A DNA stretch of 64,000 nucleotides from Giardia intestinalis (GCA_000002435.2 CM018790.1); one strand, 5' to 3'; shown: positions 1 through 35,676, counted from the stretch's first letter. A program made the numbers and translations. Notes: a model not told the origin generated them from the sequence alone.

Positions 1-1
1 A

Positions 2-5158: not shown

Positions 5159-5195
5159 TTGCTAATGACATTTTAGTGATTTGCTAACAGCTTTA

Positions 5196-7478: not shown

Positions 7479-9140
7479 ATGCAGGAGGAGGACTCTGCAG
7501 ACGCTCTGTTCCTCTCGCCAAATGCGAAGGGTTACATGGACAGCCTGCGTAAGGAGGGTCTCATAGTCAAACGAGATACAAACATAAAGCACCTCAACAA
7601 CTCTCCCTTGTACTACACCATCCGCCTCATCCTAATTATCTACCTAGTCACCTTCATTTTAGCAACCATTTATAACGCATCCGATTTGCTTTTTTGTTAC
7701 CTCCAGGCGCCAGTTCACAGCATTCGCATAAGAAATACTTCCCTGCCTACGGAGAATAAAGGCTTCCTGTTTAACGCATCAAGCTATCACCCAGGAGAAA
7801 CTATAGCATATTATTTGCAAGGATACCTGAAGGACGTCAACATCGTTGTTCTCGAGCCGTATGGTTTGAATACCAACTACGAACCCAACAGTATTGAGGA
7901 AAAACAAAATTATCTAATTAACATCGATCCAAATGTTACCCCACGCTTGATTCAAGGAGCGTTTCCAATGGCTATCGTGATGAACGGCACCAATAGTGCA
8001 GATCCTGCACACAGCATATGCATGGACTCCCTGTGGTTTACCACGTTTCCAAAGGCATCTGTCAGGCCCACAGATGGCGGTATTGCGGCTAGTGTCGATA
8101 TCCTCAACCCTAACAGAAAGCGTATATGGGTTAACTCCATGTGGTATAGCTTCTCATATTGGAGTAGCGTGGAGAGCATATACAGCGACACCAGGTTTAC
8201 GGACGACCAGAAGAAAGCACATGGTATACCAAATCTTTCAGACGTCCCCAAGACTAATTATTACTGTACAACACAAATATCCAGCATTCTTCCCAGTCAG
8301 TACAACAAGTCTAATGTTCCCATCTGGTTTATGAACCTTAGCGAAGCTTCTACTGCTAGACTAAAGGGAATTATCTGCTCTAGTAACTATGGATTAGTCC
8401 TCAATTTATCAACGTGGTTCTGCATTTCGCCTCTTCTAATTTATGACTTACGCCTGAAAAAAGTTATGCTATCTAATGTAACCTTTAACGGTAACTTAGT
8501 TTTAGATTTTAGAACAGACGAAAAAGATTCATCTATTACTCCCGAGACATTTTCCTGCTTACATCCTGAGGAATTCTATATACCATATAACTTAATATTG
8601 AATAACTCTTCTCTTAGAATCATGACGGTAACAAAAGACATTAAAGAGCTCGTCATAGACTCCTTTGGCCAATCCAGTTTTACATTCACTATTCCAAAGC
8701 GTGTGCTTACGTGTACACCAGGTAACATTTCACTTGGGGCACCCATTGCTGCCAACGAAGAGCCGTGCAGGCTAGAATTCAGTGGAATCTCTGGCGAGTC
8801 CTACTTTACTGGAGACTTTCACAGATACTACTCGGCTAGATACATAGCACCCTTGAACAAGCTCACTGAGCTCACGGTTGTTGTTAATCTCCATGTCTTG
8901 GACGATTTGACTCTTTCATTTCCATTTTGTTCGTCAAAGGTTACCCCAAAGTTTCCTTTGAACGTAATGGACTCTAGAAATAATGCAATTTTTTCACTTG
9001 ATTATGTTGAGGATGCAGAGATTGTATTTAAGGGTGCTTCTTCTAACACAGTAGGCCAACACTTTGTTGCTACAGTCACCTGCGACGGGGCGGGGCGGGG
9101 GTTCACGCTCGCGCTCCGGGCGCAGCCAGCCAGGCAGTAA
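7479..9140 (+). CDS. Type II membrane, N-glycosylation-site-rich hypothetical protein (553 aa); the last 23 codons lie inside the palindrome arm
   Basis: ATG at 7479 (aagATGcag); the track start 7458 is GTG. A single hydrophobic segment sits near the N-terminus ([22 protein letters not shown]) and there are many NxS/T sequons. The C-terminus ...[22 protein letters not shown] is encoded from 9071 onward by the inverted-repeat arm. The stop is embedded in AGTAAAC. Confidence 0.5.
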
Positions 9141-9142
9141 AC
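9136..9142 (+). promoter_or_regulatory. Giardia-type polyadenylation signal AGTAAAC overlapping the stop codon of the 553-aa gene (mirrored at 35561..35567 on the minus strand)
   Basis: AGTRAAY consensus, gcAGTAAACgagg, with the TAA stop at 9138..9140. Confidence 0.5.
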
Positions 9143-9218
9143 GAGGACACGAGGCGCCGCTCCCGGGCCACACAACACGGTACTCTGCCATCTGTTCTGG
9201 TATTTTTCTCCGCTCCGA

Positions 9219-9291
9219 GGGCGGTTAGCTCAGTTGGTAGAGCGCTTGCCTAGCATGCAAGAGGCCGGGGGTTCAAATCCCTCATCGTCCA
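9219..9291 (+). tRNA. tRNA-Ala (anticodon AGC), 73 nt, no intron
   Basis: Manual cloverleaf fold: acceptor GGGCGGT/ATCGTCC with the G3:U70 Ala identity pair; D-arm GCTC-AGTTGGTA-GAGC; anticodon arm CTTGC-CTAGCAT-GCAAG (anticodon AGC); T-arm GGGGG-TTCAAAT-CCCTC; discriminator A. The track ORF 9230..9562 (-) overlapping it is spurious. Confidence 0.85.
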
Positions 9292-9991
9292 CTTTCCGTC
9301 CCGCTCCACCGCACGGCCTGCAGCTCAGCGCGCCCTTGTGGGGCCTTGTCGTGCTCGCTGGGGCGCTTCCTGTTAATTTCTGGGGCCTTGCTCTTCGCCG
9401 TAAATGACCGACCTTGACCATGTGTGCTGTTCTGTACATGCAGCAGCTAGTTGTGAGCCGCGCCATCACCCCGTGGACGACCGTGGTCTGCAGCTTGTTC
9501 AGCGCAGCTTTCACTCGTTCTTGTAAGTATAAAGGCGCGCAAATCATCTCCCTGTTAGTCAATATACTCAGCTAGTGGGTCTACAGTGTGCCGAGACTAA
9601 AGCTCGTTGTAGAATTTATTGCAGGCATACTTAGAAGCACACAGGATCTTCACAGCGCACAGCACGAGTCTAAACTTATCTAGTGCTAAACTTTCGAAAA
9701 AAGACTGACAGTAGACTCGCTATCCCTGGTAAACGGGCATATATGTGTGAATAAAATACCAGTAAGGCTATGCAGAGCAGGGTCTACGTTGAAGAGGCCT
9801 GGATCTCGAAATGGAAAGAGAAAATAGAGCAAAAAAGTGAAGAATATTCTTCGAAAACAAGCGGCAGAAATAGTCCTAGATGCTAGATGAAGCATATCCT
9901 GGTCACAGAAGCCGCCGGCGACGCCAAATCACAACCGTTACGCTATATTAATGCATCAGATTGTGGCCATATATAATATTTGCAGAAGACC

Positions 9992-10945
9992 ATGGTTGGC
10001 TGCTGTCTATCACCCGCTGACCAAATTGAGGTCCTTCGTAAGCTAGCTGAAGAAGTTATCAGGGTACGAAAGATCCAAGAGACTGCAAATGATCTTGTTG
10101 CAAATCCTTACAGACTTTATACTTACGTTATAAAAACGTCTGTAAACTGGCGCAAAATTGCCACGGAGATCAACCAAAATCGCAACAGGATCTACCACTG
10201 GTACCGTGAAACGCATCTAAGAAACATTCTGAACATAAAGATGACAGAAGAAGATCGTCAGATTATCCGTGGAATTATCATAGATGGGATTGAAAGCAGA
10301 AGGATTGTGAGAGAAGACATCTATGGAAAGGTTCGCGAGAAATTTGGGAAAAAGTATCCACGCCAAGAATTGCGGATGACTTATAACAATATAATCAACA
10401 GCCGTAGTATCAAAACCCTCTTCAAGAAGTGCGGTATTCAGCATTCCTCGAGACGCAGCAGATCATGTGCGGCCATCCATCACCCATCTAGCGCAGAGCA
10501 GTGCCTCCCTAACGAGGAGGTGTTTAAACCACCCGTATTTCGCCTACCTGGTTACAATGATGAAACCCCATCTTCTCCTCAGGACGAAGACGAAACAGGG
10601 ACGTCTGTACCTGAGAACTCGCTATCTGCGCCACCAGAGTCTGTTGCTTGCAGCATTGTCGAGCCAAGGAACCTACCATCCAGCCTTTCCTTGGTTCCGC
10701 CCTTCGCGCCCACTCCTAGCGCTGCTCCGAATGTTTATCCGATCCCGGGTGTCTATCCGGCCCCTGGTGCCGTCCCTTATCTCCAGGCGTCGGGGGTGCT
10801 CAGTCTACAGCCGACGCCCTACCCCTTCGGCTTCGGGGTGCCGCTGACATACGTCCCTGTTCTGATACAATCGCCAGGACATACTGGCGGATGGCCCGTG
10901 GGCACGGGTGACGGTCCGCTCGGAAGGCCGACCAGGCAGCCCTGA
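9992..10945 (+). CDS. Myb/SANT-like DNA-binding protein with a proline-rich low-complexity C-terminus (317 aa)
   Basis: ATG at 9992 after atataatatttgcagaagaccATG; the track start 9980 is TTG. NWRKIATEINQNRNRIYHWYRETHL followed by MTEEDRQII fits the Myb-repeat pattern W..IA....R......W and the W-T-EED start of a second repeat. The C-terminal ~120 aa are P/G/Y-rich. Confidence 0.5.
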   Translation: MVGCCLSPADQIEVLRKLAEEVIRVRKIQETANDLVANPYRLYTYVIKTSVNWRKIATEINQNRNRIYHWYRETHLRNILNIKMTEEDRQIIRGIIIDGIESRRIVREDIYGKVREKFGKKYPRQELRMTYNNIINSRSIKTLFKKCGIQHSSRRSRSCAAIHHPSSAEQCLPNEEVFKPPVFRLPGYNDETPSSPQDEDETGTSVPENSLSAPPESVACSIVEPRNLPSSLSLVPPFAPTPSAAPNVYPIPGVYPAPGAVPYLQASGVLSLQPTPYPFGFGVPLTYVPVLIQSPGHTGGWPVGTGDGPLGRPTRQP

Positions 10946-12159
10946 GCCCCTGCTGCACCGCCTCGCACCAGAGGAGGAATCACGGTCTACAGCCAGAAGG
11001 GCAAAAGAGGCGCGTGGGTGGAAGCGCTCTCCCGATTTTCTTTTCGAGCTCGAACAGAACAGCCGTAGAGACTGTACGAAAACATCCTACAGTACCATCG
11101 AGGCCTCGCACGGAGGGGTTCTGAATGGACGAACGCCTAGGCTGGGAGCCATTCTAGAGCCGATTCTGGCCGAGGAAGGGGCTCCCCGCTTACGGGGGCA
11201 TGGCGGCTCCGCTGGCCACGTACGGCGACAGTTGCCGGGTCAGCGGCCCAGCCAAACCAGCGATGCCGCTGCGGAAGCCACCCCCGGCCCTGTCCCACAC
11301 AGTCGATGCCCTTGGCAGCCGCCTGCTCCAGTCCAGATCCACCCCACCGGCTGCGTGCCAGGGCCAGACATCTAGCAACCACAGAGACACGTCCACCGAG
11401 GCCGACACTGGCTGCACACACCGACCGGCGCGTCGATTCGAGGCACAGACGCGCATTTTTTCTTTTGTCCGGCGAGATTCCGGGCTGCGCTGGCTGCACG
11501 GATGCACGCAGCTGTTCCGCGCCGGCCGGGGCTTTCCGAGGCAGGCCTTGCGCGAGAACGCGACGTCTCGTGCAGGTCCACCGACCCTCTGGCGGGCCCA
11601 CGGCCGCGGAGTGTCCGTCCCTGTTGCGATGCAGTGCACACGGCTTTGTAGCACGTGCAGAGACCCAGTTGCCCTGCCCTGGCTGTGGCTCCTGCGCGCT
11701 GCGGCCAGCCACTGAGACCAGCCCCCATTGGAGCAGGCCACGGCAGGGCCCGCCGGACAAGCTCTCTACATGAGCACATGCTGCACAGCTTAGAGGCGAA
11801 CGCTGCACAGCCCGGCTAGTGCTCGCTGCCCCTATCGCTGCGTGGTACCTCTTCGTGAGACGACTGCGCAAGGCCACCCGATCGAGGGCTACGGCAGGAC
11901 GCAAAGAGTGGACTAGTTCAGGGCGTTGTGCATCTAGTAGGCCTGTGAGTACGCCTAGGTCGTGTATAGCTATTACATCAACATACTCATGTAGGTGGAT
12001 ACAACTGATTGCTCCGAATGGACTGGTTCTTGATGGCGTGGGCTGATGGAAGGACGCATTTGTATTACAGGTCCAAGCATAGAGGGTGGCAGCAGGAAAC
12101 GAAAAGTGGCCTGATTGCTGGTGTGCAGGTAAATGCAGCTATTTACATTTGACTTACCT

Positions 12160-12700
12160 AGCATACTGGATGATCATACTGATTGGATTCCGATAAAATG
12201 CATGCACGAGACTTACTGGTGTCTACTGATTTAAGAATTGAATGAGCAAACGCTAGGATAAGCTTGGTATGCCAATAGATAAATCACATTTAGGGAGGTA
12301 ACAATGAAATTTGTAGGAATAAAGAGACGCTCATAATATGCTGTTTCGATGATAGTAAAGGCTCTAGCACGAAGTTCATTAATCTATTATCAACAGAGAT
12401 AATAAGAAATCCAGGAGAAATGATAGCGAATCTATAATACACCCCATAAAAGGCTATAAGCACTATGGGATAATTAAGAAATGTGAAGGATATACCAGAG
12501 AATGTTATTTAAAAGGAAAGAAGTGCGTATTCAAAATCAGCAATAGTAACAAGGATAGCCTCGTTGCCAAGGATTCCATCACTGTCATCCTTATTGTCAA
12601 CCTTTCTGTCAGAGGTTCTTTTACTGTAGGAAAGTATAAACATAATCATCTATTTAAGTGGTAAACGCATCGTCTAACATCTGCTCAGCAGCCTTACACA
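12160..12700. other. ~0.5 kb A/T-rich island with no ORF inside the otherwise GC-rich arm (mirror 32003..32543)
   Basis: Abrupt composition shift visible by eye; stop-codon-dense in all frames. Confidence 0.4.
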
Positions 12701-13104
12701 GAAGTCCCGAAATAAGTAGTCACGGGGCAGAGTCTCCTGACGCTGCCAAATAAGCATATATAGTGCTCCCTCTGCATGGAGCACTGGAGGCCCGGCACGG
12801 AGTGGCCACAACTTCTCGTGGATACAGGCTGGTCGAAGCCGCTGGTGGCTGTATCCTCCAACCCCCTGCTTCAGAGCGTGGCTGCGCATGCTCTGCACGG
12901 CGCCTTCTCCTGCAGTGTCCGTGCGCTCGCCGGATGGAGCGAACCCAGCTAGCTACGCGGCCGCCACTGCAGGCCCCTCTTCACCCTGTATGCAGAAGCG
13001 CTGACCCGGGAAGAGGTGTCCCAGGGAGCCACGGGCAGCTGGTTGGAGTGAAACACGTTGGGACTTTTTGAAAATGGCCCTGTCCCGTGCCGGCCACGCG
13101 GCCT

Positions 13105-13725
13105 CTAGACCAGCGAGGCGAGGAGCTTCTTGATCCCTGGGCGCGCACGGTAGCCATCAGATAGCTCGCGCAGCGGTGGAAACTGGTCCACGAGCTCCGG
13201 ATACTCTGCGTCCGCATAATACAGGACCTCCAGGACCGCGTAGTCCGAATAGAGCGGCTCGGGAGCCAGGCTCCGGAGGCTCAGCACGTCCCGGGTCAGA
13301 ACGGTCAATCCCGGAAGGATCCTGTTCTGTCGGTAGGCCGCGATGCACTCCGAGCGCGTCATCTCTGCCCCAGCGGCAAGGGCCTCTGCCACGGCTTCGG
13401 GCTCCTTCCAGACGGCGGCAAGAAGATCCTCACAGAAGAGCACCAGGGCCCGCGCAGCAGCCTGCACCTGCAATGACGTGCTGTACCGCCCCAGGCTCGC
13501 CCCCAGGTACTCTAGAATGACCATGCCCCCGGCCACCCGCGCTGCGCTGTCTTCCCACACGGGGAGCGTGCACGATGGTGCACCTACCTTCGCCGCGGCC
13601 ACCTGCTCAGCGCTCGCCAAGGGCGCCCACTCGTACCGTATCTCCAGGTCTGCGAGCAGGAGCCGGCACTTCAATGCGGTGCCCCGGGCGTCGTAGTACG
13701 TGAGTCTCGGCGGAACTACGTCCAT
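13105..13725 (-). CDS. Glutathione S-transferase-like protein (cytosolic Tyr-type, alpha/sigma-like), 206 aa
   Basis: MDVVPPRLTYYDARGTALKCRLLLADLEIRYEW aligns with the GST N-terminal motif (LTYFNMRGRAEIIRYIFAYLDIQYE in sigma-class HPGDS; [25 protein letters not shown] in alpha class), including the catalytic Tyr. TLPVWEDSAARVAGGMVILEYLGA matches the lPvle.dg..l.qS.AI..Yla block. The C-terminal helical domain ends ...PELVDQFPPLRELSDGYRARPGIKKLLAS. Internal ATG at 13723..13725 preceded by ggaagtaaaATG; the track ORF extends to 13773. Very GC-rich coding sequence. Confidence 0.6.
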   Translation of the reverse strand: MDVVPPRLTYYDARGTALKCRLLLADLEIRYEWAPLASAEQVAAAKVGAPSCTLPVWEDSAARVAGGMVILEYLGASLGRYSTSLQVQAAARALVLFCEDLLAAVWKEPEAVAEALAAGAEMTRSECIAAYRQNRILPGLTVLTRDVLSLRSLAPEPLYSDYAVLEVLYYADAEYPELVDQFPPLRELSDGYRARPGIKKLLASLV

Positions 13726-14803
13726 TTTACTTCCCCGGTGGGCTCGTATCAACCGTGCCAAGGTGCGAGGCAACCCCTGGCACGCGGGCCGCCTCTCCCA
13801 GGGGGAGATCCTTGGGTTTCAGTTTACAACCTGAGCACCAGCTTCGTGTAGCTGCTATGCATTGCTAGCTACTACTGCCTGCATAGATAGTGGTGGGGTT
13901 GGGGTGGACACTAGGCTGGCGCGGTTTATGGAGGTCGTCTGCCTCCCGGGTCGCTTGAACCTAGCCGGAGTCTTCCCATTGGACCCTCTAAGTCATATCA
14001 CGAATCATAGGACGGATAAACTAGCCCCTAGCGGGTCAAAAGGGTCGGCAGTGATCGCAGCCACTGTGTCACTCGAGGACCTGTTGAGGCCCGGGACTCT
14101 GCAGAAGCCCCTCACTAGCTCGGTCTTGAAGTCCACGCTCTTGTGTGCCAAGATCCACGTCTTGTTATGCGTGCCGTGCTTTCCAGTACAATCGTGCTTA
14201 TACTTGTCGCCCTCTCTAATGCAGCTTCTAATGCTACCATGACGGGAGTTCTCGCTGTTTTGTACTTCATGTTTGTCAACACGGCCTAGGTGCCCTGCTG
14301 TCTGCTCTGCAGTCGCTTTATCTCCTGCTAAAAGGAAGTGAGAGCTCTTGGGTATCCGGTAAGACGTCCGGGCAAACGCGATAATGCTTCGATGAGTGTA
14401 CGTTAGTCGCATCGGCACAGAGCGCGTGCTAACCGGACGAAGCCATGTGCCTGCTGACTTCTATACAATATTCTAAGGCTATCCGGTCTCTGCATGGCAC
14501 CGCCAGGTGTGTAGTGGGGCCTGTGGCCATTAAGACCCAGAAGAGCCTCTTCTCCTACTTGGCTTCGGAGTCACTCCCAGTAGAGTATTGTTATGAGGCT
14601 GGTGTGCAGAGAAACACCGAATAGTTTGTACCGGTACACATGACCCCTTATCCCCAGACGGCACTCGCCATGGCTAGGCATTCGTAGAACCGCAGCATCG
14701 TGGGCTTGTGCACCGCTCACTGCCCATGCACGTGTAGCTGCAGACACACAAGCCAGTCGAGAGGCGCTTGCTTGCCCGGCTCCCTCATCACTGTTCAGAA
14801 CAT

Positions 14804-16466
14804 CGAACTCCTTATGCGAGCCACCGCCGCCCTGGGCAAGCGGGTCTCCCTCATCCCTGCATCAACCAAGATCAAAACCTAGAGTTCGAACTCAGGTGTC
14901 AAGCGACTCTGGTGGGAGAAAAAGAACTTTTGTTCTGCCCTCTTCCCAAGAACGAGACAGGACAACCACGATCAGGGGACGATCATGATACGCTCCACAA
15001 GGCAGCCCCGAGCCGCCTGGAGACCAGACCCTGGCCTTCCTCGAGACCTAGCAGATTGCGTTCCACTGGATGTACATGGGTGGCGTTTGCATGGCGCAGG
15101 GAGACGCAGGCTGATGGGTACAGCGGTCTTGCTCGACATAATGAACTCCAACAGTAGACGGCCTCTGCCAGGCGAGTGTGCCCCGTCCCGAGGAGCTGCG
15201 TCGGGGCCTTCCTCCGGCTGCGACACACGAGGTATCTGGACTCGGTCCCTCAGGGCCCTGCGCATGCTTCTGTGCTGCGGGAGACAGAACCTGCTCGCCA
15301 GGAGCTGAAGGAGAGGCCCCGCTCAGTACCCATGCCGACGACACATTCAGCTTCCATAGTGACGACAAGCCTGGCGAAACGCTATAGCTCGACGGTCAAC
15401 ACTGGGTGTGGGAGCACTGAGGGGCAGGAGGCCTCCTTTCTAACTAGTCTCGAAGGAGCTTCCAAGACAACGAAGAGCCGAAGCTAGTGATGATGCGCCG
15501 ATCATTTGCCACGCTTGTCGAGATGGACCCACACGTGACCTATGTGAATCCCTCGACAGGCAAGTCGGCCCTTGGGGTGCTTGGCTGACAGAGGCGGACT
15601 GATCCCGACCGCACCGAAGAGTGGTAGCGGCTTGGACCACCTGCCGGGCGTCTGCCGCAGTAGCTGGCAGTGTCTGACATCCTCGAGTAGATGGGCGCCA
15701 AGCGAGACGGCCTGAGGGTGAACCAGTCCTGACCGCTCCCGGTGTCTCAGACGACGCCTCTTAGAGAGGTGGCCCTGGACCGACGCCTCGACAGACCGAA
15801 GCATCACCCCAGGTGTGCTGTGCGGTGTGAAGACGGACGTAGTCCGCATCGTCAGCTGAGCCAGACGCACTGCACAGGGTGAGCGTCGACATGATCTCGT
15901 GCTAGGTGATGGACCACCTGCAAGAGCGCACTGCGATCCATGGGCAGAGGGATGGGCCTCTTCCCCGACACCACCGCATGGGATTACTCCATCGGCATCC
16001 ATGAACGCGTACTCTGACTCCAAGACAGAGGCGTACGGGGGGCGCGCTCTCCCGGTCATACTCGGGACCGATGATACAATCCACGAGGAGACGAAGAGGC
16101 ACCCCGAGGAACGGGGTAGACACCCGGGGTCGTGGCGTATCCCATCTTCGTCGTAGAGCATCAGCGCCACAAAGCTACTCCGGAGTACATGGCCAGAGTC
16201 AAGCTTCCAAGGCCAGATCCTGTGACCGACGGCAGGCCCTGATATAGCGGGTGTCCACCCAGGTGCCAGACGATAGTTGACTCCGATGGGTCAGAGGAAG
16301 GGAAGTCCTAGAGGGCACCGCGAGGAGCGGCAGCTTCCAGGGGAAGCGGGAATAGGAGTTCTTCCGCCGGGATCAAGGGCATCCGCCTCTCGAACTCTGG
16401 ATTTGGATCTCGGCTGGTACAGGGGCGAGAGAGACTCGCTTGCCCAGGGTGGCGGTGGCTCGCATG
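14804..16466. mobile_element. Candidate non-autonomous element (~1.66 kb) bounded by ~80-bp terminal inverted repeats (mirror copy 28237..29899)
   Basis: 14804..14883 (atgcgagccaccgccgccctgggcaagcgggtctccctcatccctgcatcaaccaagatcaaaacctagagttcgaa) and the reverse complement of 16388..16466 align at roughly 85% identity. Each TIR carries a GC hairpin (GCGAG-AGAGA-CTCGC) and a GAGTTCGA(A/G) box. No convincing ORF inside and no clear target-site duplication. Confidence 0.35.
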
Positions 16467-19400: not shown

Positions 19401-20223
19401 CAGCGGATGGCATCAGGATAACCTTGGGTGGGAGAGAGTTGACTGGCCCAGAAAGCAGCGGTTTGGATAGCGTTTCCTCTCTGCCCAGGCTTGGAAGGTC
19501 TAGCCTGCGCCTTCTGCGCTTCACCTGACACCTCGTTGTGTACTGGGGTGGCTTATTAGTATTTACTCCAAAAGATCAAAACTAGCGCCATGTGCACTTA
19601 GCAGGCCGGTGCGCCTCGTTAGCTAGTTTATGCTGGCTTACGCCTTCCACAGACTCTAGCGGCTGCTGGGATCTTCTCTCGGGATCCAGCAAAGGTTTGT
19701 CTTTGAGCGTAGCTCCCCTGCGACAGCAAAGGGTCGCGGGCATGATCTGGTGGGTGGGAATACTAGGAGCGGATAGGAGAGTGCCGGCATACATGGGCCC
19801 GTAGAGCTCTAACCAGCGCAGGGAAGTGCAGGTGTCTGGCTCTCCGGAAATGCAGAGGCGCCGGTAGCGGGCATGGGCACAGTGGGGGCGCCCGGGCTGT
19901 CCTCCGATTGGCCGCGGAGAAGGGGGATGCCCGGCGCACGGGACGGTTCTGCTGTTTGCTTTTAGAATTTCTACTTCCTTGCGTGCTTTGCAAGGAGTGC
20001 GGGGCTCCTCGGATGTCGCTTGGCCAGGCCTGGAGGGCCCGCGATGGACGAGGTGGTGGGCTTATATAATGAACGCGTTTGGCATTCGCTGGGCTCCTCC
20101 TTCCTAGACCGAGGTATCGTAGGAGTAGGGTCTCTTCGGACTACCTGCATAGCACAGTCAGATAGACGTTTTTAGCTCTAACTATCGGACTCTTATCTAT
20201 GTAATAAGCCGAGAGGGATATCA

Positions 20224-20991: not shown

Positions 20992-21003
20992 ATGTACTTA
21001 GGT

Positions 21004-24479: not shown

Positions 24480-27400
24480 TGATATCCCTCTCGGCTTATT
24501 ACATAGATAAGAGTCCGATAGTTAGAGCTAAAAACGTCTATCTGACTGTGCTATGCAGGTAGTCCGAAGAGACCCTACTCCTACGATACCTCGGTCTAGG
24601 AAGGAGGAGCCCAGCGAATGCCAAACGCGTTCATTATATAAGCCCACCACCTCGTCCATCGCGGGCCCTCCAGGCCTGGCCAAGCGACATCCGAGGAGCC
24701 CCGCACTCCTTGCAAAGCACGCAAGGAAGTAGAAATTCTAAAAGCAAACAGCAGAACCGTCCCGTGCGCCGGGCATCCCCCTTCTCCGCGGCCAATCGGA
24801 GGACAGCCCGGGCGCCCCCACTGTGCCCATGCCCGCTACCGGCGCCTCTGCATTTCCGGAGAGCCAGACACCTGCACTTCCCTGCGCTGGTTAGAGCTCT
24901 ACGGGCCCATGTATGCCGGCACTCTCCTATCCGCTCCTAGTATTCCCACCCACCAGATCATGCCCGCGACCCTTTGCTGTCGCAGGGGAGCTACGCTCAA
25001 AGACAAACCTTTGCTGGATCCCGAGAGAAGATCCCAGCAGCCGCTAGAGTCTGTGGAAGGCGTAAGCCAGCATAAACTAGCTAACGAGGCGCACCGGCCT
25101 GCTAAGTGCACATGGCGCTAGTTTTGATCTTTTGGAGTAAATACTAATAAGCCACCCCAGTACACAACGAGGTGTCAGGTGAAGCGCAGAAGGCGCAGGC
25201 TAGACCTTCCAAGCCTGGGCAGAGAGGAAACGCTATCCAAACCGCTGCTTTCTGGGCCAGTCAACTCTCTCCCACCCAAGGTTATCCTGATGCCATCCGC
25301 TGCAAGCAATAGTGGAGTACGATTGCCCGCAGCACCCCGAACCTGTGGGTGTGGAGTGTCAAAGGGCTCTCTGTCGTGGGCTACTTGAATAGAAAGAATG
25401 GGGGTCTGATGCGTCCATGCCGCTTTCTCAGCCATTAAGTAGATCTATGACCCAGCGCCCCTTGTGGCCTCGTACGGGTACCAGGGTAGTTGGGCGCCCA
25501 TCCACTGATAAGGGTGTCGAGCAACATTTAATTGCTACCTTCGGGCCAATCTGTGTCTGGTCATGGGTAGATATGCCGATCGGTGTAAGTGTCCTACCCT
25601 TAATTTATGCATCATGTCACCTGGTAGAGGGTATGGTATAGCTCTATACACCTCTCCGTGATGCTGCTGCGAGAAGTGGGCCCCTATTGTGTGGCTCAGA
25701 AGCCGGATAGTCTCCGAAGACACCATATCCTTGTGATCTCCAGTATGGCCCCGCTAGAAGGGCTCGATGTTCGCAGGCCAGTATAGGAAGCGAAGGTCCA
25801 ACAGAATACACCTTGAGGGGAGTGCCACAAACATGCATCGGGCACGATCCTGCTAAGAATCCTGCAGGAGGCCGGCCTGGGCCTCAGTGGCTGGAGAATC
25901 TTCAATAGGAAAGCGGCTGCTGTGATCATCCATTCATCGGTGTAGAGGATGTCCACTGCTACGGGCTGGATGATTTTTGTTCGCCTGTAGGGATCGTTCG
26001 GCGTGCAAGGTAGGCCATCGATGAGAGTGGTCCATTCACGTGGACTGAGTGGGGGGGGGCTCTATAGTCGACCGGTTATTCTAAGAAAGTCTGCACCAGT
26101 GGGGCTGCAATTACGGCCTGCATTCGACAGGTAAGGGTTCCATGGATTGGACCCTGTGGGTCCGCTGTGGTGAGCTCCAGGTATGTGGCTACCTCAGCGC
26201 AATCTCCAAGAGGGTAGCCCTGCCTGGCTAAGACTCGTAGGCACGAACATAGTACAGCACCCTTCTGAGTCTCTGGAGTCAAGTATACCTCAGACAACGA
26301 GAACAGATGGAGACCCAAAGGCGCTAGCCTAGGCTGCTCCGATCTCTGCTATCCGAGGAATCAGTAGGGCCACAGGATGGCAGAGGTCCCGCTTCATGCC
26401 CCAGGAGGCCGTGCCTTGGTGGAGATACGCGTCACGGTCCCTGCTACCGCCCCTTGGTGGGATGCTGCCTGGTCTGAAGGCCTGCTGGTCGACAGAATGG
26501 GTTGTGCTGAGAAGCAGCATAGTACCATACAGACGATGAGCTGAGAAGACCAATGCTGATTGTGCATCTCCCACAGTGAGTACGCCCACAGTGCGCTGCA
26601 AAGGGTCAACGCCCTGGGTGGCCAAGTGAAGCTAAGGTGCTTGGCAGTAGCGATATTCCAGACGGTAAAAGAGCCTGGTGGGGCTTGTGAGGAGATACTG
26701 GGGGCACAAGGTCTGCCGGGCTTATATGAGACGCACAGAGGATCCCCACGCAGTAAACCGATTGACCCTTTTCTTGATAGACAAGACTCTTGCCTGTAGT
26801 GGCCGTCTGCATGACACATTCCTTTGTGGGACTGACGGAAGCACCCACTGACCCAGAAAAGCCATCAGCAGTAGTTGCACGAGATGGACAAGCAGGGGAC
26901 AGGAGTGGACCACACTATCCTGGCTGATGATCAATCAGACTACGTAATGCGTATACAACCCTTGACCGAAATGGAGATGCACCGTAGACTTAGCCACGTG
27001 GGCTGAGAGCGCTGCTAGTAATCATCTGCCATGAGAAGACGCAGGCGAGACATTTGTGGACAGCAACCACGTCGACTGGTACCAGCCTGCACAGTGTATC
27101 CTTATAACCGATCTTCGTCCGTATACGAGGAGGAAGCGAACGTCCTCGGCCTCAGGCAAAGCAGACCCCTATAAACACTATGCTGCTACAAATGCATAAA
27201 ATCAGAAAGCAGCGTCTAGCTTGTCCGCGGGCCTCACGACCTTTCTACACCCGAAGGGAAGAAAGACACTACAGGCGTCCCTATTGCAATCCAGGTCGGT
27301 GGCTGGCCTCTCTGGTGTCAGCCTTGCCCAACTGGTCCGCTAGTCACCTCTACCTTCTCTGTATGAACCAGTTCTCCAGGAATCGTCATGCACGGGCAGC

Positions 27401-30400
27401 CTTCTACGCACCTGGCTGACATCCTCCTTTGCTAAGGTGTGTCATCAAGGGGTAAGTGTTATAAGATGAGCGCAGCCAAAGACAGATCTCCTCGCAGTCC
27501 TGTTCAACATTAGCAGCGACCATGCAAACGAACATAAGATAGGCGAGGAGCGTGCCGCAGTCCAAACCGGTCACCACACTAGGATCATAACAGTTTGTGC
27601 ACAAGGTTCTGCTTCTGGCTTTATATGTGGGTTTACGTCTCATCTTGAAAGGCAGCTTTCCATAGCGCCTTTCCGAGTGTGCAGTTGTCATTACAACCGG
27701 TGGATGGGCAGGCACAGAGATTGTAGGCCTACATAAAGGCACCTCTGGTGCAACCAAGTGCTGTCTCCCATCAATGGCAGACGCCTCGGCACACGGTGTC
27801 CGCTCTACTATCAGACCTTATGCGGCGTGTACGCATCGTCAGAGGGAGCCGATATGGGGCATGTTCAATCTGTTGGGCCGACACAGCTCCATTGTAGCAA
27901 GTGCAGTGGTGGAGGCAGTCACTGGCGCAAGACAGTGGGGCGTGTGGCTCAGTACAGCGATCCGTATTTAGACACATCGGTCCTCTGAGACGAGCATAAC
28001 ACGCTGTCCACACATGCAATTGCCTTTTCATACTGCTTACTCCCATGAGCAGTTGCGATACATCGTATGCCAGAAAACGGCGTAAAGGGTCCCCAGACTA
28101 TTGGACCAGTAGACCGGACTGACGAGGGCAGCTGGCCATGCGTGCAGAAGCTCTGTCCTGGGGGCGGCGGGTGCAACGGCTGCCTCAAGTTTTTTAGCCG
28201 GGGTGGGGCTGTCGCCTGCTATCTGAGTAATCTTCCCATGCGAGCCACCGCCACCCTGGGCAAGCGAGTCTCTCTCGCCCCTGTACCAGCCGAGATCCAA
28301 ATCCAGAGTTCGAGAGGCGGATGCCCTTGATCCCGGCGGAAGAACTCCTATTCCCGCTTCCCCTGGAAGCTGCCGCTCCTCGCGGTGCCCTCTAGGACTT
28401 CCCTTCCTCTGACCCATCGGAGTCAACTATCGTCTGGCACCTGGGTGGACACCCGCTATATCAGGGCCTGCCGTCGGTCACAGGATCTGGCCTTGGAAGC
28501 TTGACTCTGGCCATGTACTCCGGAGTAGCTTTGTGGCGCTGATGCTCTACGACGAAGATGGGATACGCCACGACCCCGGGTGTCTACCCCGTTCCTCGGG
28601 GTGCCTCTTCGTCTCCTCGTGGATTGTATCATCGGTCCCGAGTATGACCGGGAGAGCGCGCCCCCCGTACGCCTCTGTCTTGGAGTCAGAGTACGCGTTC
28701 ATGGATGCCGATGGAGTAATCCCATGCGGTGGTGTCGGGGAAGAGGCCCATCCCTCTGCCCATGGATCGCAGTGCGCTCTTGCAGGTGGTCCATCACCTA
28801 GCACGAGATCATGTCGACGCTCACCCTGTGCAGTGCGTCTGGCTCAGCTGACGATGCGGACTACGTCCGTCTTCACACCGCACAGCACACCTGGGGTGAT
28901 GCTTCGGTCTGTCGAGGCGTCGGTCCAGGGCCACCTCTCTAAGAGGCGTCGTCTGAGACACCGGGAGCGGTCAGGACTGGTTCACCCTCAGGCCGTCTCG
29001 CTTGGCGCCCATCTACTCGAGGATGTCAGACACTGCCAGCTACTGCGGCAGACGCCCGGCAGGTGGTCCAAGCCGCTACCACTCTTCGGTGCGGTCGGGA
29101 TCAGTCCGCCTCTGTCAGCCAAGCACCCCAAGGGCCGACTTGCCTGTCGAGGGATTCACATAGGTCACGTGTGGGTCCATCTCGACAAGCGTGGCAAATG
29201 ATCGGCGCATCATCACTAGCTTCGGCTCTTCGTTGTCTTGGAAGCTCCTTCGAGACTAGTTAGAAAGGAGGCCTCCTGCCCCTCAGTGCTCCCACACCCA
29301 GTGTTGACCGTCGAGCTATAGCGTTTCGCCAGGCTTGTCGTCACTATGGAAGCTGAATGTGTCGTCGGCATGGGTACTGAGCGGGGCCTCTCCTTCAGCT
29401 CCTGGCGAGCAGGTTCTGTCTCCCGCAGCACAGAAGCATGCGCAGGGCCCTGAGGGACCGAGTCCAGATACCTCGTGTGTCGCAGCCGGAGGAAGGCCCC
29501 GACGCAGCTCCTCGGGACGGGGCACACTCGCCTGGCAGAGGCCGTCTACTGTTGGAGTTCATTATGTCGAGCAAGACCGCTGTACCCATCAGCCTGCGTC
29601 TCCCTGCGCCATGCAAACGCCACCCATGTACATCCAGTGGAACGCAATCTGCTAGGTCTCGAGGAAGGCCAGGGTCTGGTCTCCAGGCGGCTCGGGGCTG
29701 CCTTGTGGAGCGTATCATGATCGTCCCCTGATCGTGGTTGTCCTGTCTCGTTCTTGGGAAGAGGGCAGAACAAAAGTTCTTTTTCTCCCACCAGAGTCGC
29801 TTGACACCTGAGTTCGAACTCTAGGTTTTGATCTTGGTTGATGCAGGGATGAGGGAGACCCGCTTGCCCAGGGCGGCGGTGGCTCGCATAAGGAGTTCGA
29901 TGTTCTGAACAGTGATGAGGGAGCCGGGCAAGCAAGCGCCTCTCGACTGGCTTGTGTGTCTGCAGCTACACGTGCATGGGCAGTGAGCGGTGCACAAGCC
30001 CACGATGCTGCGGTTCTACGAATGCCTAGCCATGGCGAGTGCCGTCTGGGGATAAGGGGTCATGTGTACCGGTACAAACTATTCGGTGTTTCTCTGCACA
30101 CCAGCCTCATAACAATACTCTACTGGGAGTGACTCCGAAGCCAAGTAGGAGAAGAGGCTCTTCTGGGTCTTAATGGCCACAGGCCCCACTACACACCTGG
30201 CGGTGCCATGCAGAGACCGGATAGCCTTAGAATATTGTATAGAAGTCAGCAGGCACATGGCTTCGTCCGGTTAGCACGCGCTCTGTGCCGATGCGACTAA
30301 CGTACACTCATCGAAGCATTATCGCGTTTGCCCGGACGTCTTACCGGATACCCAAGAGCTCTCACTTCCTTTTAGCAGGAGATAAAGCGACTGCAGAGCA

Positions 30401-30977
30401 GACAGCAGGGCACCTAGGCCGTGTTGACAAACATGAAGTACAAAACAGCGAGAACTCCCGTCATGGTAGCATTAGAAGCTGCATTAGAGAGGGCGACAAG
30501 TATAAGCACGATTGTACTGGAAAGCACGGCACGCATAACAAGACGTGGATCTTGGCACACAAGAGCGTGGACTTCAAGACCGAGCTAGTGAGGGGCTTCT
30601 GCAGAGTCCCGGGCCTCAACAGGTCCTCGAGTGACACAGTGGCTGCGATCACTGCCGACCCTTTTGACCCGCTAGGGGCTAGTTTATCCGTCCTATGATT
30701 CGTGATATGACTTAGAGGGTCCAATGGGAAGACTCCGGCTAGGTTCAAGCGACCCGGGAGGCAGACGACCTCCATAAACCGCGCCAGCCTAGTGTCCACC
30801 CCAACCCCACCACTATCTATGCAGGCAGTAGTAGCTAGCAATGCATAGCAGCTACACGAAGCTGGTGCTCAGGTTGTAAACTGAAACCCAAGGATCTCCC
30901 CCTGGGAGAGGCGGCCCGCGTGCCAGGGGTTGCCTCGCACCTTGGCACGGTTGATACGAGCCCACCGGGGAAGTAAA

Positions 30978-31598
30978 ATGGACGTAGTTCCGCCGAGACT
31001 CACGTACTACGACGCCCGGGGCACCGCATTGAAGTGCCGGCTCCTGCTCGCAGACCTGGAGATACGGTACGAGTGGGCGCCCTTGGCGAGCGCTGAGCAG
31101 GTGGCCGCGGCGAAGGTAGGTGCACCATCGTGCACGCTCCCCGTGTGGGAAGACAGCGCAGCGCGGGTGGCCGGGGGCATGGTCATTCTAGAGTACCTGG
31201 GGGCGAGCCTGGGGCGGTACAGCACGTCATTGCAGGTGCAGGCTGCTGCGCGGGCCCTGGTGCTCTTCTGTGAGGATCTTCTTGCCGCCGTCTGGAAGGA
31301 GCCCGAAGCCGTGGCAGAGGCCCTTGCCGCTGGGGCAGAGATGACGCGCTCGGAGTGCATCGCGGCCTACCGACAGAACAGGATCCTTCCGGGATTGACC
31401 GTTCTGACCCGGGACGTGCTGAGCCTCCGGAGCCTGGCTCCCGAGCCGCTCTATTCGGACTACGCGGTCCTGGAGGTCCTGTATTATGCGGACGCAGAGT
31501 ATCCGGAGCTCGTGGACCAGTTTCCACCGCTGCGCGAGCTATCTGATGGCTACCGTGCGCGCCCAGGGATCAAGAAGCTCCTCGCCTCGCTGGTCTAG
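30978..31598 (+). CDS. Glutathione S-transferase-like protein, second copy (identical protein)
   Basis: Mirror of 13105..13725. A single A/G difference (13063/31640) lies 42-45 nt beyond the stop in the 3' flank. Confidence 0.6.
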   Translation: MDVVPPRLTYYDARGTALKCRLLLADLEIRYEWAPLASAEQVAAAKVGAPSCTLPVWEDSAARVAGGMVILEYLGASLGRYSTSLQVQAAARALVLFCEDLLAAVWKEPEAVAEALAAGAEMTRSECIAAYRQNRILPGLTVLTRDVLSLRSLAPEPLYSDYAVLEVLYYADAEYPELVDQFPPLRELSDGYRARPGIKKLLASLV

Positions 31599-33757
31599 AG
31601 GCCGCGTGGCCGGCACGGGACAGGGCCATTTTCAAAAAGCCCCAACGTGTTTCACTCCAACCAGCTGCCCGTGGCTCCCTGGGACACCTCTTCCCGGGTC
31701 AGCGCTTCTGCATACAGGGTGAAGAGGGGCCTGCAGTGGCGGCCGCGTAGCTAGCTGGGTTCGCTCCATCCGGCGAGCGCACGGACACTGCAGGAGAAGG
31801 CGCCGTGCAGAGCATGCGCAGCCACGCTCTGAAGCAGGGGGTTGGAGGATACAGCCACCAGCGGCTTCGACCAGCCTGTATCCACGAGAAGTTGTGGCCA
31901 CTCCGTGCCGGGCCTCCAGTGCTCCATGCAGAGGGAGCACTATATATGCTTATTTGGCAGCGTCAGGAGACTCTGCCCCGTGACTACTTATTTCGGGACT
32001 TCTGTGTAAGGCTGCTGAGCAGATGTTAGACGATGCGTTTACCACTTAAATAGATGATTATGTTTATACTTTCCTACAGTAAAAGAACCTCTGACAGAAA
32101 GGTTGACAATAAGGATGACAGTGATGGAATCCTTGGCAACGAGGCTATCCTTGTTACTATTGCTGATTTTGAATACGCACTTCTTTCCTTTTAAATAACA
32201 TTCTCTGGTATATCCTTCACATTTCTTAATTATCCCATAGTGCTTATAGCCTTTTATGGGGTGTATTATAGATTCGCTATCATTTCTCCTGGATTTCTTA
32301 TTATCTCTGTTGATAATAGATTAATGAACTTCGTGCTAGAGCCTTTACTATCATCGAAACAGCATATTATGAGCGTCTCTTTATTCCTACAAATTTCATT
32401 GTTACCTCCCTAAATGTGATTTATCTATTGGCATACCAAGCTTATCCTAGCGTTTGCTCATTCAATTCTTAAATCAGTAGACACCAGTAAGTCTCGTGCA
32501 TGCATTTTATCGGAATCCAATCAGTATGATCATCCAGTATGCTAGGTAAGTCAAATGTAAATAGCTGCATTTACCTGCACACCAGCAATCAGGCCACTTT
32601 TCGTTTCCTGCTGCCACCCTCTATGCTTGGACCTGTAATACAAATGCGTCCTTCCATCAGCCCACGCCATCAAGAACCAGTCCATTCGGAGCAATCAGTT
32701 GTATCCACCTACATGAGTATGTTGATGTAATAGCTATACACGACCTAGGCGTACTCACAGGCCTACTAGATGCACAACGCCCTGAACTAGTCCACTCTTT
32801 GCGTCCTGCCGTAGCCCTCGATCGGGTGGCCTTGCGCAGTCGTCTCACGAAGAGGTACCACGCAGCGATAGGGGCAGCGAGCACTAGCCGGGCTGTGCAG
32901 CGTTCGCCTCTAAGCTGTGCAGCATGTGCTCATGTAGAGAGCTTGTCCGGCGGGCCCTGCCGTGGCCTGCTCCAATGGGGGCTGGTCTCAGTGGCTGGCC
33001 GCAGCGCGCAGGAGCCACAGCCAGGGCAGGGCAACTGGGTCTCTGCACGTGCTACAAAGCCGTGTGCACTGCATCGCAACAGGGACGGACACTCCGCGGC
33101 CGTGGGCCCGCCAGAGGGTCGGTGGACCTGCACGAGACGTCGCGTTCTCGCGCAAGGCCTGCCTCGGAAAGCCCCGGCCGGCGCGGAACAGCTGCGTGCA
33201 TCCGTGCAGCCAGCGCAGCCCGGAATCTCGCCGGACAAAAGAAAAAATGCGCGTCTGTGCCTCGAATCGACGCGCCGGTCGGTGTGTGCAGCCAGTGTCG
33301 GCCTCGGTGGACGTGTCTCTGTGGTTGCTAGATGTCTGGCCCTGGTACGCAGCCAGTGGGGTGGATCTGGACTGGAGCAGGCGGCTGCCAAGGGCATCGA
33401 CTGTGTGGGACAGGGCCGGGGGTGGCTTCCGCAGCGGCATCGCTGGTTTGGCTGGGCCGCTGACCCGGCAACTGTCGCCGTACGTGGCCAGCGGAGCCGC
33501 CATGCCCCCGTAAGCGGGGAGCCCCTTCCTCGGCCAGAATCGGCTCTAGAATGGCTCCCAGCCTAGGCGTTCGTCCATTCAGAACCCCTCCGTGCGAGGC
33601 CTCGATGGTACTGTAGGATGTTTTCGTACAGTCTCTACGGCTGTTCTGTTCGAGCTCGAAAAGAAAATCGGGAGAGCGCTTCCACCCACGCGCCTCTTTT
33701 GCCCTTCTGGCTGTAGACCGTGATTCCTCCTCTGGTGCGAGGCGGTGCAGCAGGGGC

Positions 33758-34711
33758 TCAGGGCTGCCTGGTCGGCCTTCCGAGCGGACCGTCACCCGTG
33801 CCCACGGGCCATCCGCCAGTATGTCCTGGCGATTGTATCAGAACAGGGACGTATGTCAGCGGCACCCCGAAGCCGAAGGGGTAGGGCGTCGGCTGTAGAC
33901 TGAGCACCCCCGACGCCTGGAGATAAGGGACGGCACCAGGGGCCGGATAGACACCCGGGATCGGATAAACATTCGGAGCAGCGCTAGGAGTGGGCGCGAA
34001 GGGCGGAACCAAGGAAAGGCTGGATGGTAGGTTCCTTGGCTCGACAATGCTGCAAGCAACAGACTCTGGTGGCGCAGATAGCGAGTTCTCAGGTACAGAC
34101 GTCCCTGTTTCGTCTTCGTCCTGAGGAGAAGATGGGGTTTCATCATTGTAACCAGGTAGGCGAAATACGGGTGGTTTAAACACCTCCTCGTTAGGGAGGC
34201 ACTGCTCTGCGCTAGATGGGTGATGGATGGCCGCACATGATCTGCTGCGTCTCGAGGAATGCTGAATACCGCACTTCTTGAAGAGGGTTTTGATACTACG
34301 GCTGTTGATTATATTGTTATAAGTCATCCGCAATTCTTGGCGTGGATACTTTTTCCCAAATTTCTCGCGAACCTTTCCATAGATGTCTTCTCTCACAATC
34401 CTTCTGCTTTCAATCCCATCTATGATAATTCCACGGATAATCTGACGATCTTCTTCTGTCATCTTTATGTTCAGAATGTTTCTTAGATGCGTTTCACGGT
34501 ACCAGTGGTAGATCCTGTTGCGATTTTGGTTGATCTCCGTGGCAATTTTGCGCCAGTTTACAGACGTTTTTATAACGTAAGTATAAAGTCTGTAAGGATT
34601 TGCAACAAGATCATTTGCAGTCTCTTGGATCTTTCGTACCCTGATAACTTCTTCAGCTAGCTTACGAAGGACCTCAATTTGGTCAGCGGGTGATAGACAG
34701 CAGCCAACCAT
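33758..34711 (-). CDS. Myb/SANT-like DNA-binding protein, second copy
   Basis: Mirror of 9992..10945; identical translation. Confidence 0.5.
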   Translation of the reverse strand: MVGCCLSPADQIEVLRKLAEEVIRVRKIQETANDLVANPYRLYTYVIKTSVNWRKIATEINQNRNRIYHWYRETHLRNILNIKMTEEDRQIIRGIIIDGIESRRIVREDIYGKVREKFGKKYPRQELRMTYNNIINSRSIKTLFKKCGIQHSSRRSRSCAAIHHPSSAEQCLPNEEVFKPPVFRLPGYNDETPSSPQDEDETGTSVPENSLSAPPESVACSIVEPRNLPSSLSLVPPFAPTPSAAPNVYPIPGVYPAPGAVPYLQASGVLSLQPTPYPFGFGVPLTYVPVLIQSPGHTGGWPVGTGDGPLGRPTRQP

Positions 34712-35411
34712 GGTCTTCTGCAAATATTATATATGGCCACAATCTGATGCATTAATATAGCGTAACGGTTGTGATTTGGCGTCGCCGGCGGCTTCTGTGA
34801 CCAGGATATGCTTCATCTAGCATCTAGGACTATTTCTGCCGCTTGTTTTCGAAGAATATTCTTCACTTTTTTGCTCTATTTTCTCTTTCCATTTCGAGAT
34901 CCAGGCCTCTTCAACGTAGACCCTGCTCTGCATAGCCTTACTGGTATTTTATTCACACATATATGCCCGTTTACCAGGGATAGCGAGTCTACTGTCAGTC
35001 TTTTTTCGAAAGTTTAGCACTAGATAAGTTTAGACTCGTGCTGTGCGCTGTGAAGATCCTGTGTGCTTCTAAGTATGCCTGCAATAAATTCTACAACGAG
35101 CTTTAGTCTCGGCACACTGTAGACCCACTAGCTGAGTATATTGACTAACAGGGAGATGATTTGCGCGCCTTTATACTTACAAGAACGAGTGAAAGCTGCG
35201 CTGAACAAGCTGCAGACCACGGTCGTCCACGGGGTGATGGCGCGGCTCACAACTAGCTGCTGCATGTACAGAACAGCACACATGGTCAAGGTCGGTCATT
35301 TACGGCGAAGAGCAAGGCCCCAGAAATTAACAGGAAGCGCCCCAGCGAGCACGACAAGGCCCCACAAGGGCGCGCTGAGCTGCAGGCCGTGCGGTGGAGC
35401 GGGACGGAAAG

Positions 35412-35484
35412 TGGACGATGAGGGATTTGAACCCCCGGCCTCTTGCATGCTAGGCAAGCGCTCTACCAACTGAGCTAACCGCCC
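35412..35484 (-). tRNA. tRNA-Ala (AGC), second copy
   Basis: Exact reverse complement of 9219..9291. Confidence 0.85.
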
Positions 35485-35676
35485 TCGGAGCGGAGAAAAA
35501 TACCAGAACAGATGGCAGAGTACCGTGTTGTGTGGCCCGGGAGCGGCGCCTCGTGTCCTCGTTTACTGCCTGGCTGGCTGCGCCCGGAGCGCGAGCGTGA
35601 ACCCCCGCCCCGCCCCGTCGCAGGTGACTGTATTATCGAACCATACTAATCTTTAATCAAATAAACCCGCCTAAAA

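Follow-up and report, generated by a model that had tools for sequence, protein, structure and literature searches.

A near-perfect 26.5-kb palindrome around the vsp47 gene pair of Giardia intestinalis, probably an old inverted duplication homogenised by gene conversion

Identical genes for variant-specific surface proteins (VSPs) in Giardia intestinalis have been described solely as inverted pairs (Adam 2010, BMC Genomics 11:424; PMC2996952). Fourteen such pairs, vsp1267 among them, were listed in that study and 19 in Xu 2020 (Sci Data 7:38; PMC7000408), and seven identical VSP pairs are reported for G. muris (Xu 2020, Microb Genom). The inverted pairs cut contigs short and were called "interesting but cryptic", with the suggestion that the duplications are relatively recent (Adam 2010, PMC2996952). 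For the tail-to-tail pairs the 5' divergence is given as "-" throughout, and no outer limit is stated in either Adam 2010 (PMC2996952) or Xu 2020 (PMC7000408); the latter reports that several genes can be duplicated together, over as much as 20 kb, and that the surroundings of VSP genes are poor in genes. The present analysis concerns one of these pairs, vsp47, which lies in a stretch of 64,000 nucleotides (GCA_000002435.2 CM018790.1; hereafter the window, with positions counted from its first letter) assigned by exact protein matches to chromosome 2 of G. intestinalis WB clone C6. Its two identical open reading frames (ORFs) of 255 aa stand tail to tail. Upstream of the VSP gene the identity extends for another 11.2 kb and takes in a tRNA and two other genes. 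Whereas the published pairs are called cryptic and probably recent, the vsp47 duplication very probably arose before assemblages A, B and E separated and has been homogenised since, and its spacer belongs to a repeated family.

Long inverted repeats with closely similar copies are known from other systems. In primates, palindromes P1-P8 lie on the Y chromosome, and X-chromosome palindromes are conserved in human, chimpanzee and macaque, as described in two reports (PMC3723533, PMC8981503). The primate palindromes resemble the vsp47 locus in their long inverted arms of more than 99.9% identity around a unique spacer, and in arms that are closer within a genome than between lineages, as expected of arm-to-arm conversion; for Giardia this comparison covers the outer 1.1-2.3 kb. 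The Giardia palindrome is 10 to 100 times smaller, lies on an autosome-like chromosome of a tetraploid, binucleate protist, carries a surface antigen and not testis genes, and yields no detectable GC-biased (guanine-plus-cytosine-biased) conversion in a small sample.

Plastid genomes carry two inverted copies, IRa and IRb, which are kept identical by recombination-dependent copy correction while their boundaries creep. The likeness to the Giardia palindrome lies in long-term copy correction, but the plastid repeats belong to a multicopy circular organellar genome with flip-flop isomers, whereas the Giardia palindrome is nuclear and linear. Palindromes also form from short inverted repeats after a double-strand break, as in Tetrahymena ribosomal DNA and in yeast and mammalian gene amplification. 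The vsp47 palindrome likewise has an imperfect inverted repeat, the module of the VSP 3' flank, with an asymmetric core at its exact centre. It is, however, interstitial and neither terminal nor extrachromosomal, and its present identity would stem from later conversion, not from the founding event.

Two 12-kb arms around a catalogued vsp pair

Direct comparison of both strands gave the mirror rule x' = 44703 - x, valid from positions 9071 and 35632 inward. The left arm (9071-21345, plus strand) and the right arm (23358-35632, minus strand) are each 12,275 bp long, and the left arm matches the reverse complement of 35632-23358 with three mismatches, a divergence of 2.4e-4 (99.98% identity). 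The palindrome measures 26,562 bp in total, of which the non-identical centre accounts for 2,012 bp. This symmetry of the arms is beyond the reach of chance. The original prediction, made from the sequence of the window, had described a near-perfect palindrome with three single-base differences and had proposed a reverse-complement self-comparison as a check. That comparison was run, and the palindrome is real, with exactly three such differences. The outer boundary proposed at 9071/35632 proved exact, and an abrupt edge was seen there. At the inner boundary the arms are near-identical as described, but perfect identity stops at 21345/23358, ten bases before the 21355/23348 that had been claimed.

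The three arm-to-arm differences lie at 11348 (C/T; mirror 33355), 11357 (G/A; mirror 33346) and 13063 (A/G; mirror 31640). At 11348 and 11357 the left base is ancestral and the right base derived; these two sites are fresh mutations awaiting conversion or, possibly, consensus errors. In GC content the arms (0.558) and the spacer (0.632) exceed the two flanks (0.461 and 0.467), and the listed genes (three protein ORFs and a tRNA) take up only ~20% of an arm. The description of the arms as GC-rich and gene-poor is thereby upheld. So is the position assigned to the palindrome, between a gamma-tubulin side and an M14/CCP-like side: gamma-tubulin and GL50803_0061276 lie to its left, and GL50803_0010979 lies to its right.

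The VSP gene vsp47 (GL50803_117204 or d117204; 20224-20991, plus strand) encodes 255 aa with the C-terminus CRGKA and is an exact match to KAE8302023.1 and XP_001708276. A second, identical copy at 23712-24479 (minus strand) stands tail to tail with the first. The gap between the two VSP ORFs is 2,720 bp, and the distance from the stop codon (20991) to divergence (21345) is 354 nt. With convergent ORFs and no Pfam or Rfam match in the interval between them, whose length falls within the 2-4 kb of non-coding DNA typical of the class, the locus has the layout of a tail-to-tail vsp pair. The published figures agree closely. According to row 47 of Table 5 in Adam 2010 (PMC2996952), the copies diverge 354 nt past the stop and their ORFs are 2,721 bp apart, and the supplement of the same study (PMC2996952) lists vsp47.1/47.2 as GL50803_117203/117204, on chromosome 2, with 255 aa. 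Table 2 of Xu 2020 (PMC7000408) gives chromosome 2, d117204/117204, orientation '-> <-', 255 aa and 2,720 bp. The central VSP pair is thus already catalogued, as vsp47.1/47.2 or d117204/117204. In the literature searched, no description was found of the 12-kb arm extent at vsp47 or of these loci as palindromes, nor was there any report of their concerted evolution.

Junctions and arm sequence in other assemblages

A comparison with other assemblages, which the original prediction had recommended, was run to both outer junctions, and both are present in AII, E and B. Their positions coincide within 17 nt among WB, AII, E (P15) and B (GS); relative to WB, the outer edge lies 8 nt further out in GS and 9 nt further in in P15. 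The edge bases that have been lost from identity are still recognisably homologous, with matches at 4/8 in WB and 6/9 in P15. In P15, the left contig carries gamma-tubulin and the ortholog of GL50803_0061276 and ends 1,099 nt into the arm, and the right contig carries the ortholog of GL50803_0010979 followed by 117192-family and GST-like genes in the right-arm orientation. The P15 arms are inverted in genome terms and 100.000% identical over these 1,099 nt.

Within a genome, then, the arms agree, and between genomes they do not. In the outermost ~1.1 kb, left-right differences number 0/1,118 in WB, 0/1,099 in P15 and 0/1,150 in GS, while identity between lineages in that part is ~81% for WB-P15 and 66% for WB-GS. 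A left arm of AII type (contig L012) equals the right arm of that type (DH and contig L002), and the same three sites differ from both WB arms. When polarised with P15, 34 substitutions in the outer 3 kb fall to the WB lineage, and each is found in both WB arms. The tRNA-Ala(AGC) gene is present in both arms of P15 and in both arms of GS. Judged from these alignments, the pattern is one of concerted evolution through arm-to-arm gene conversion. Because the junctions are shared, the arms are identical within genomes and the lineages have diverged from one another, one ancient duplication with continuing arm-to-arm conversion best fits the data. Of the two explanations that the original prediction had offered for the symmetry, recent formation is contradicted by the presence of the same junctions in AII, E and B, with arms identical within and diverged between lineages, and active arm-to-arm gene conversion is favoured.

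The junctions themselves were recovered in Sanger, 454, Illumina and metagenome assemblies from WB-like, AII, E and B Giardia. The 2007 Sanger assembly, analysed in Adam 2010, already held both VSP copies with the geometry of 354 nt and 2,721 bp. At the left junction, a MEGAHIT k141 contig from an AII-like sample stops 141 nt inside the edge, and a DH contig terminates exactly at 9070. At the right junction, the starts of four Logan contigs (one 100% WB-identical) lie 29-30 nt inside the edge, and the junction is crossed by 3.09 kb in DH and by 1.58 kb in a contig from the ENA. Assemblage-B contigs from Logan halt 30 nt inside the arm edge. Logan contigs presumably represent a k=31 de Bruijn graph, so that stops ~30 nt inside a repeat boundary are expected. 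Three lineages yielded contigs that end at precisely k-1 or k bases within the arm edge.

Several observations weigh against an old palindrome maintained by conversion. Three further Logan contigs, 100% WB-identical, cover window positions 1-10624 and so reach 1,554 nt into the left arm, crossing the junction without stopping or branching; the runs may be RNA-seq. The comparison with P15 and GS spans the outer 1.1-2.3 kb of both arms, where the contigs end. In GS the arms are 99.5% identical over 2,267 nt (L017:480-2746 vs L022:9066-11332), with the left arm taken from the GS_B assembly and the right arm from the 2009 assembly, that is, from two assemblies of the isolate. Assemblers of 454 data may mix reads of both arms, which would make the figure of "100%" slightly flattering; such mixing is unable to mask a divergence of 19-34%. 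The DH contig (AII; L001, AHGT01000003 1-6863) follows the right arm for 3.09 kb only, to window position 32542 (= 12161), beyond which it carries a different, 609-aa VSP gene and then PGK, Cluap1 and a proteasome subunit. Either the inner arm is therefore rearranged in AII or the 454 contig is chimeric. Lastly, polarised substitutions gave no clear GC-biased fixation in a small sample, the weak-to-strong against strong-to-weak (W>S:S>W) counts being 29:40 for the arms and 93:99 for the flanks. The equilibrium GC implied by this small set is 0.475 for the arm and 0.447 for the flanks. As the source of the GC-rich arms, GC-biased gene conversion found no clear support in this small set. Such fixation is common, though not defining, in conversion-maintained palindromes of the sex-chromosome type.

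Some further features of the other isolates were observed. All 11 sites at which left and right differ in GS fall between 1,592 and 2,227 nt from the outer edge, six of them inside a 50-nt stretch, and this cluster looks like an unconverted or allelic patch. DH also has part of a vsp47-like gene, on a 4.8-kb contig of its own (P0002). Further into the P15 right arm (L015:324-1136) there is a second, diverged paralog of the 117192 family, where WB has unrelated non-coding DNA. Inner arm content has thus turned over between A and E, and the outer part has remained collinear.

Arm ends, the central module and a possible origin

Identity between the arms is eroded at both ends, by 8-17 nt at the outer edge and by ~160 nt at the inner edge. 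Inside the left arm end, a diverged zone at 21346-21504 (plus strand) is ~80-85% identical to its partner, with indels, in gapped blastn and MAFFT alignments; the corresponding right zone is at 23194-23357 (minus strand). Inverted homology in gapped alignment thus continues beyond perfect identity to about 21504/23194. The outermost ~18 nt of the right zone (about 23340-23357) form a complex patch. The left-type sequence at this site is also present in L013 and L014, from a lineage ~88% identical to WB, and in both repeats of contig L023, and for this reason the right-side patch is taken to be the derived state. By this comparison it is the ~18-nt patch that makes the WB inner boundary abrupt and that now isolates the inner 160 nt. 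Since conversion needs homology on both sides, the arm ends would escape it and decay. A G-run tract (GGGGGGTGGGGCGGGGG / GGGGGGTGGGGCGGGGGTATGGGCGGTGAGGCTGGAGGGGACCGGGTGGGGG) was noted at the inner boundary between repeat and core, at 21446-21510, with C-rich sequence on the mirror side at 23193-23257. It could form a G-quadruplex and is a candidate site of replication stalling or strand breakage.

Between the diverged zones lies an asymmetric spacer core of 1,689 bp (21505-23193, plus strand) with a GC content of 0.62 and a skew of T over A. Self-comparison of the core gave no internal symmetry. The core and centre gave no Pfam match and no Rfam match at E <= 1, the spacer ORFs with an ATG start had no match in the protein collection searched, and no homologs were found for the ORF at 21053-21550 (minus strand) that crosses the arm-spacer boundary. 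A search of JGI metagenome contigs with two patterns, a conserved block of the inner repeat and the conserved VSP 3' end, returned no Giardia sequence. A profile-free HMMER search with a core ORF returned homologous ORFs, one of which pointed to a 6-kb contig of an AII-like sample (L023). This contig holds the 3' end of a different VSP gene followed by sequence collinear with window positions 20875-23622. Imperfect inverted repeats of its own (87% identical, ~450 nt) are present, and a second VSP gene is absent. Identity between the window and L023 is 85-98% in the core and 74-88% in the 3' flank and repeats. In place of a second VSP gene, the contig carries after the module a cysteine-rich gene with a signal peptide, HCMP-like or VSP-like (L023:4266-6071).

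At least eight variant ORF translations of the core family were found in public data. When twice the 3' divergence is subtracted from the distance between ORFs for pairs 1, 20, 53 and 126 in Table 5 of Adam, the remainders are 1,696, 1,677, 1,698 and 1,688 bp, compared with 1,689 bp at vsp47. All 12 pairs with the orientation '-> <-' in Table 2 of Xu 2020 (PMC7000408) have 2,526-2,813 bp between their ORFs. On sequence grounds, the core is placed in a repeated family that lies 3' of VSP genes. L023, the variant translations and the published spacings together suggest that the tail-to-tail pairs share one central module.

An old inverted duplication around vsp47, pre-dating the A/B/E split, homogenised by intrachromosomal gene conversion and centred on this repeated module, is considered very likely. 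A ~12-kb segment would have been copied once in inverted orientation, before assemblages A, B and E diverged, and would have comprised the 3' end of GL50803_61276, tRNA-Ala(AGC), a gene of the 117192 family, a GST-like ORF, a long stretch of GC-rich non-coding DNA and the VSP gene. Copying most likely proceeded from left to right: the left edge falls within the native 3' end of GL50803_61276, whereas its mirror is non-coding, 44 nt upstream of the GL50803_10979 ATG. The centre would be a single module of ~2.5-2.7 kb, in which an asymmetric core of ~1.7 kb lies between the VSP 3' flank and an inverted copy of that flank. The module is also found downstream of other VSP genes and is a plausible nucleator of the palindrome, and nucleation may have proceeded by fold-back or template switching at its inverted repeats. 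Repeated gene conversion since then would have used each arm as the repair template for the other, through homologous-recombination repair or synthesis-dependent strand annealing between the arms. Conversion would fail near the ends of homology, so that both edges erode, and the 18-nt complex mutation on the right side in WB would act as a heterology barrier at the inner edge. Between inverted arms a crossover would merely flip the spacer, where direct repeats would lose the intervening DNA. Inverted orientation would thus permit homogenisation without deletion, which fits the occurrence of identical vsp genes only as inverted pairs (Adam 2010).

The symmetry could in principle be produced by the PacBio assembler, through mirroring of a single true arm. 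Palindromes are a classic artefact of long reads, and the three Logan contigs that cross the left junction lack the branch expected at a repeat. Such a fold-back chimera is nevertheless extremely improbable, and was rejected, given that the 2007 Sanger assembly holds both VSP copies in the same geometry, that both outer junctions recur in Illumina, 454 and metagenome data assembled independently from WB-like, AII, E and B Giardia, and that contigs from three lineages stop k-1 or k bases inside the edges. A real palindrome might still be young, its arms identical because one recent duplication, or a recurrent duplication in each lineage, has had no time to diverge and with no ongoing conversion. 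Just three differences over 12,275 bp, the suggestion in Adam 2010 (PMC2996952) that identical pairs are relatively recent, and an inner arm content that differs between A and E and apparently in AII too, so that parts of the structure turn over, all speak for youth. Independent events would not be expected to reuse both breakpoints, however, and the outer junctions of A, AII, E and B agree to within 17 nt, with the bases lost at the edge still homologous. Arms that are identical within each genome are 19-34% diverged between genomes, and the diverged inner zone of ~160 nt adjoins perfect identity, which points to unequal histories inside one duplication. Youth without conversion is therefore very unlikely.

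The remaining explanations concern what kind of element the palindrome is. Long terminal inverted repeats around a central spacer, a GC content unlike that of the flanks and a central module from a repeated family with imperfect inverted repeats of its own would suit a giant foldback transposable element or an insertion with terminal inverted repeats at its ends. No target-site duplication is present, though: the left flank ends in ...GTTGC and the right flank begins with TTATC.... The left edge sits inside a resident gene, in a 3' end that A, B and E have conserved, so the arm holds native chromosomal DNA. Assemblages A, B and E agree in the position of the palindrome, and none of the ORFs scanned by Pfam has a transposase or reverse-transcriptase domain, some short arm ORFs lying outside the scan. 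A mobile origin of the whole 26.5-kb unit can hardly be credited, and was rejected for the missing target-site duplication and for the edge inside a resident gene. The palindrome might instead serve to control VSP expression, with read-through of the convergent genes giving a sense-antisense hairpin RNA that feeds the proposed silencing by RNA interference, and with the core as a regulatory element. Identical convergent genes only 2.7 kb apart, a core that is 85-98% identical between paralogous loci where the flanking repeats reach 74-88%, a narrow range of spacing in all 12 published '-> <-' pairs and the identical VSP pairs of G. muris are in keeping with this. On the other hand, the motif AGTAAAC, presumably the Giardia polyadenylation signal, stands 14 nt past the VSP stop codon, so read-through need not be frequent; the centre has neither an Rfam nor a Pfam signal; and control of VSP genes leaves the identity of 11 kb of upstream DNA, with a tRNA and two unrelated genes, unexplained. 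Such a role is unlikely on present evidence, and it is compatible with a palindrome maintained by conversion rather than an alternative to it. The original prediction had seen in the cargo a candidate antigenic-variation cassette. In recombinational cassettes such as those of VSG, vlsE or pilS, antigens switch by DNA transfer between a silent donor and an expression site. The cassette reading has no support here: nothing in the data points to a donor or expression-site role, and both VSP copies are identical, so exchange between them would yield no new antigen. Switching is described as epigenetic, with no change of chromosomal location for two vsp genes studied (Adam 2010, PMC2996952).

Cargo, flanking genes and implications

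The predicted cargo of the arms was recovered in three of four cases. ARAGORN and Rfam find a tRNA-Ala(AGC) gene in each arm, at 9219-9292 (plus strand; 68.4 bits) and at 35411-35484 (minus strand). The VSP gene matches PF03302 with 106 bits. A GST-like ORF at 13105-13773 (minus strand; 222 aa, with a TTG start as listed; mirror copy at 30930-31598, plus strand) narrowly passes the Pfam GST_N_2 cut-off of 25 with 27.2 bits, and has a 214-aa ortholog in P15 with ~87% nucleotide identity. In the case of the Myb-like gene, profile searches gave a different result. The gene encodes a hypothetical protein of 317 aa from a Giardia-specific family (GL50803_00117192 or 00117191) and lies at 9992-10945 (plus strand) in the left arm, with the right copy (the other of GL50803_00117191/00117192) at 33758-34711 (minus strand). 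The protein has no Pfam family at E <= 0.1 and hence no Myb/SANT match by profile, so that this part of the prediction gained no support from profiles; its N-terminal ~150 aa form a helical domain, possibly Myb/SANT-like or homeodomain-like. Across the 6 kb of non-coding arm, no hidden pseudogenes were found by tblastn with VSP, HCMP-like, 117192-family and P15 arm proteins.

Contigs end within GL50803_00117192 at 10624 (Logan, k31) and at the mirror of 10649 (ENA), in the output of two assemblers from different samples. This suggests a dispersed repeat, or sequence shared among paralogs, from ~10595 onward (zone ~10595-10650, mirror ~34054-34108), in the proline-rich half of the gene. Each arm also holds a nested 76-nt inverted repeat (14814-14889 vs 16465-16390; mirror 28238-28313 / 29814-29889), 84% identical, which encloses 1.5 kb. 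The enclosed segment stands in the opposite orientation in a divergent lineage recovered from metagenome data (L014:1-163), a change that looks like a small flip via the nested repeat.

To the left of the palindrome, the gene GL50803_0061276 (7479-9140, plus strand) encodes a hypothetical protein of 553 aa; the final 70 nt of the gene, stop codon included, fall within the left arm. The 3' end of its ortholog is also inside the arm in GS (75 nt) and in P15. To the right, GL50803_0010979 (35677-36669, plus strand) encodes a coiled-coil-like protein of 330 aa. A block of ~40 nt (GTTCACGCTYGCGCTCCGGGCGCAGCC...CAGTAAACG; 9101-9142, mirror 35561-35602) is near-invariant in A, B and E, in surroundings of 66-81% identity. 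It codes for the C-terminus of GL50803_61276 and contains the stop codon and AGTAAAC, and an identical non-coding copy lies just upstream of GL50803_10979. Further to the right of the palindrome, a direct similarity of 143 nt (76%) links 43521-43660 with 48671-48812, one of the two lying within a ParA/CbiA-like gene.

The new elements here are the size, cargo, age, homogenisation and shared centre of the structure; it is not a new kind of element. The duplicated unit at vsp47 is ten times the size of the VSP gene and carries a tRNA and two other genes besides. Loci of this type break short-read assemblies and double the apparent copy number, and they can mimic heterozygosity or inversions in variant calls near VSP genes. 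The locus would also be a protist addition to the small set of long-lived, self-correcting palindromes.

A testable model follows for the whole class of vsp pairs, as conversion-maintained palindromes on a common central module. Under this model tail-to-tail VSP pairs in general would be long-lived palindromes, each nucleated by a copy of one repeated ~2.5-kb module that has inverted repeats at its ends and is located 3' of VSP genes, and homogenised by conversion over species-level time, with a core that is possibly functional or mobile. The extension to all pairs is put forward tentatively and is at present somewhat more doubtful than probable. If it is true for all pairs, a rarely sexual, tetraploid protist would possess a self-repair architecture like that of the Y chromosome, and the occurrence of identical vsp genes only as inverted pairs would be accounted for.

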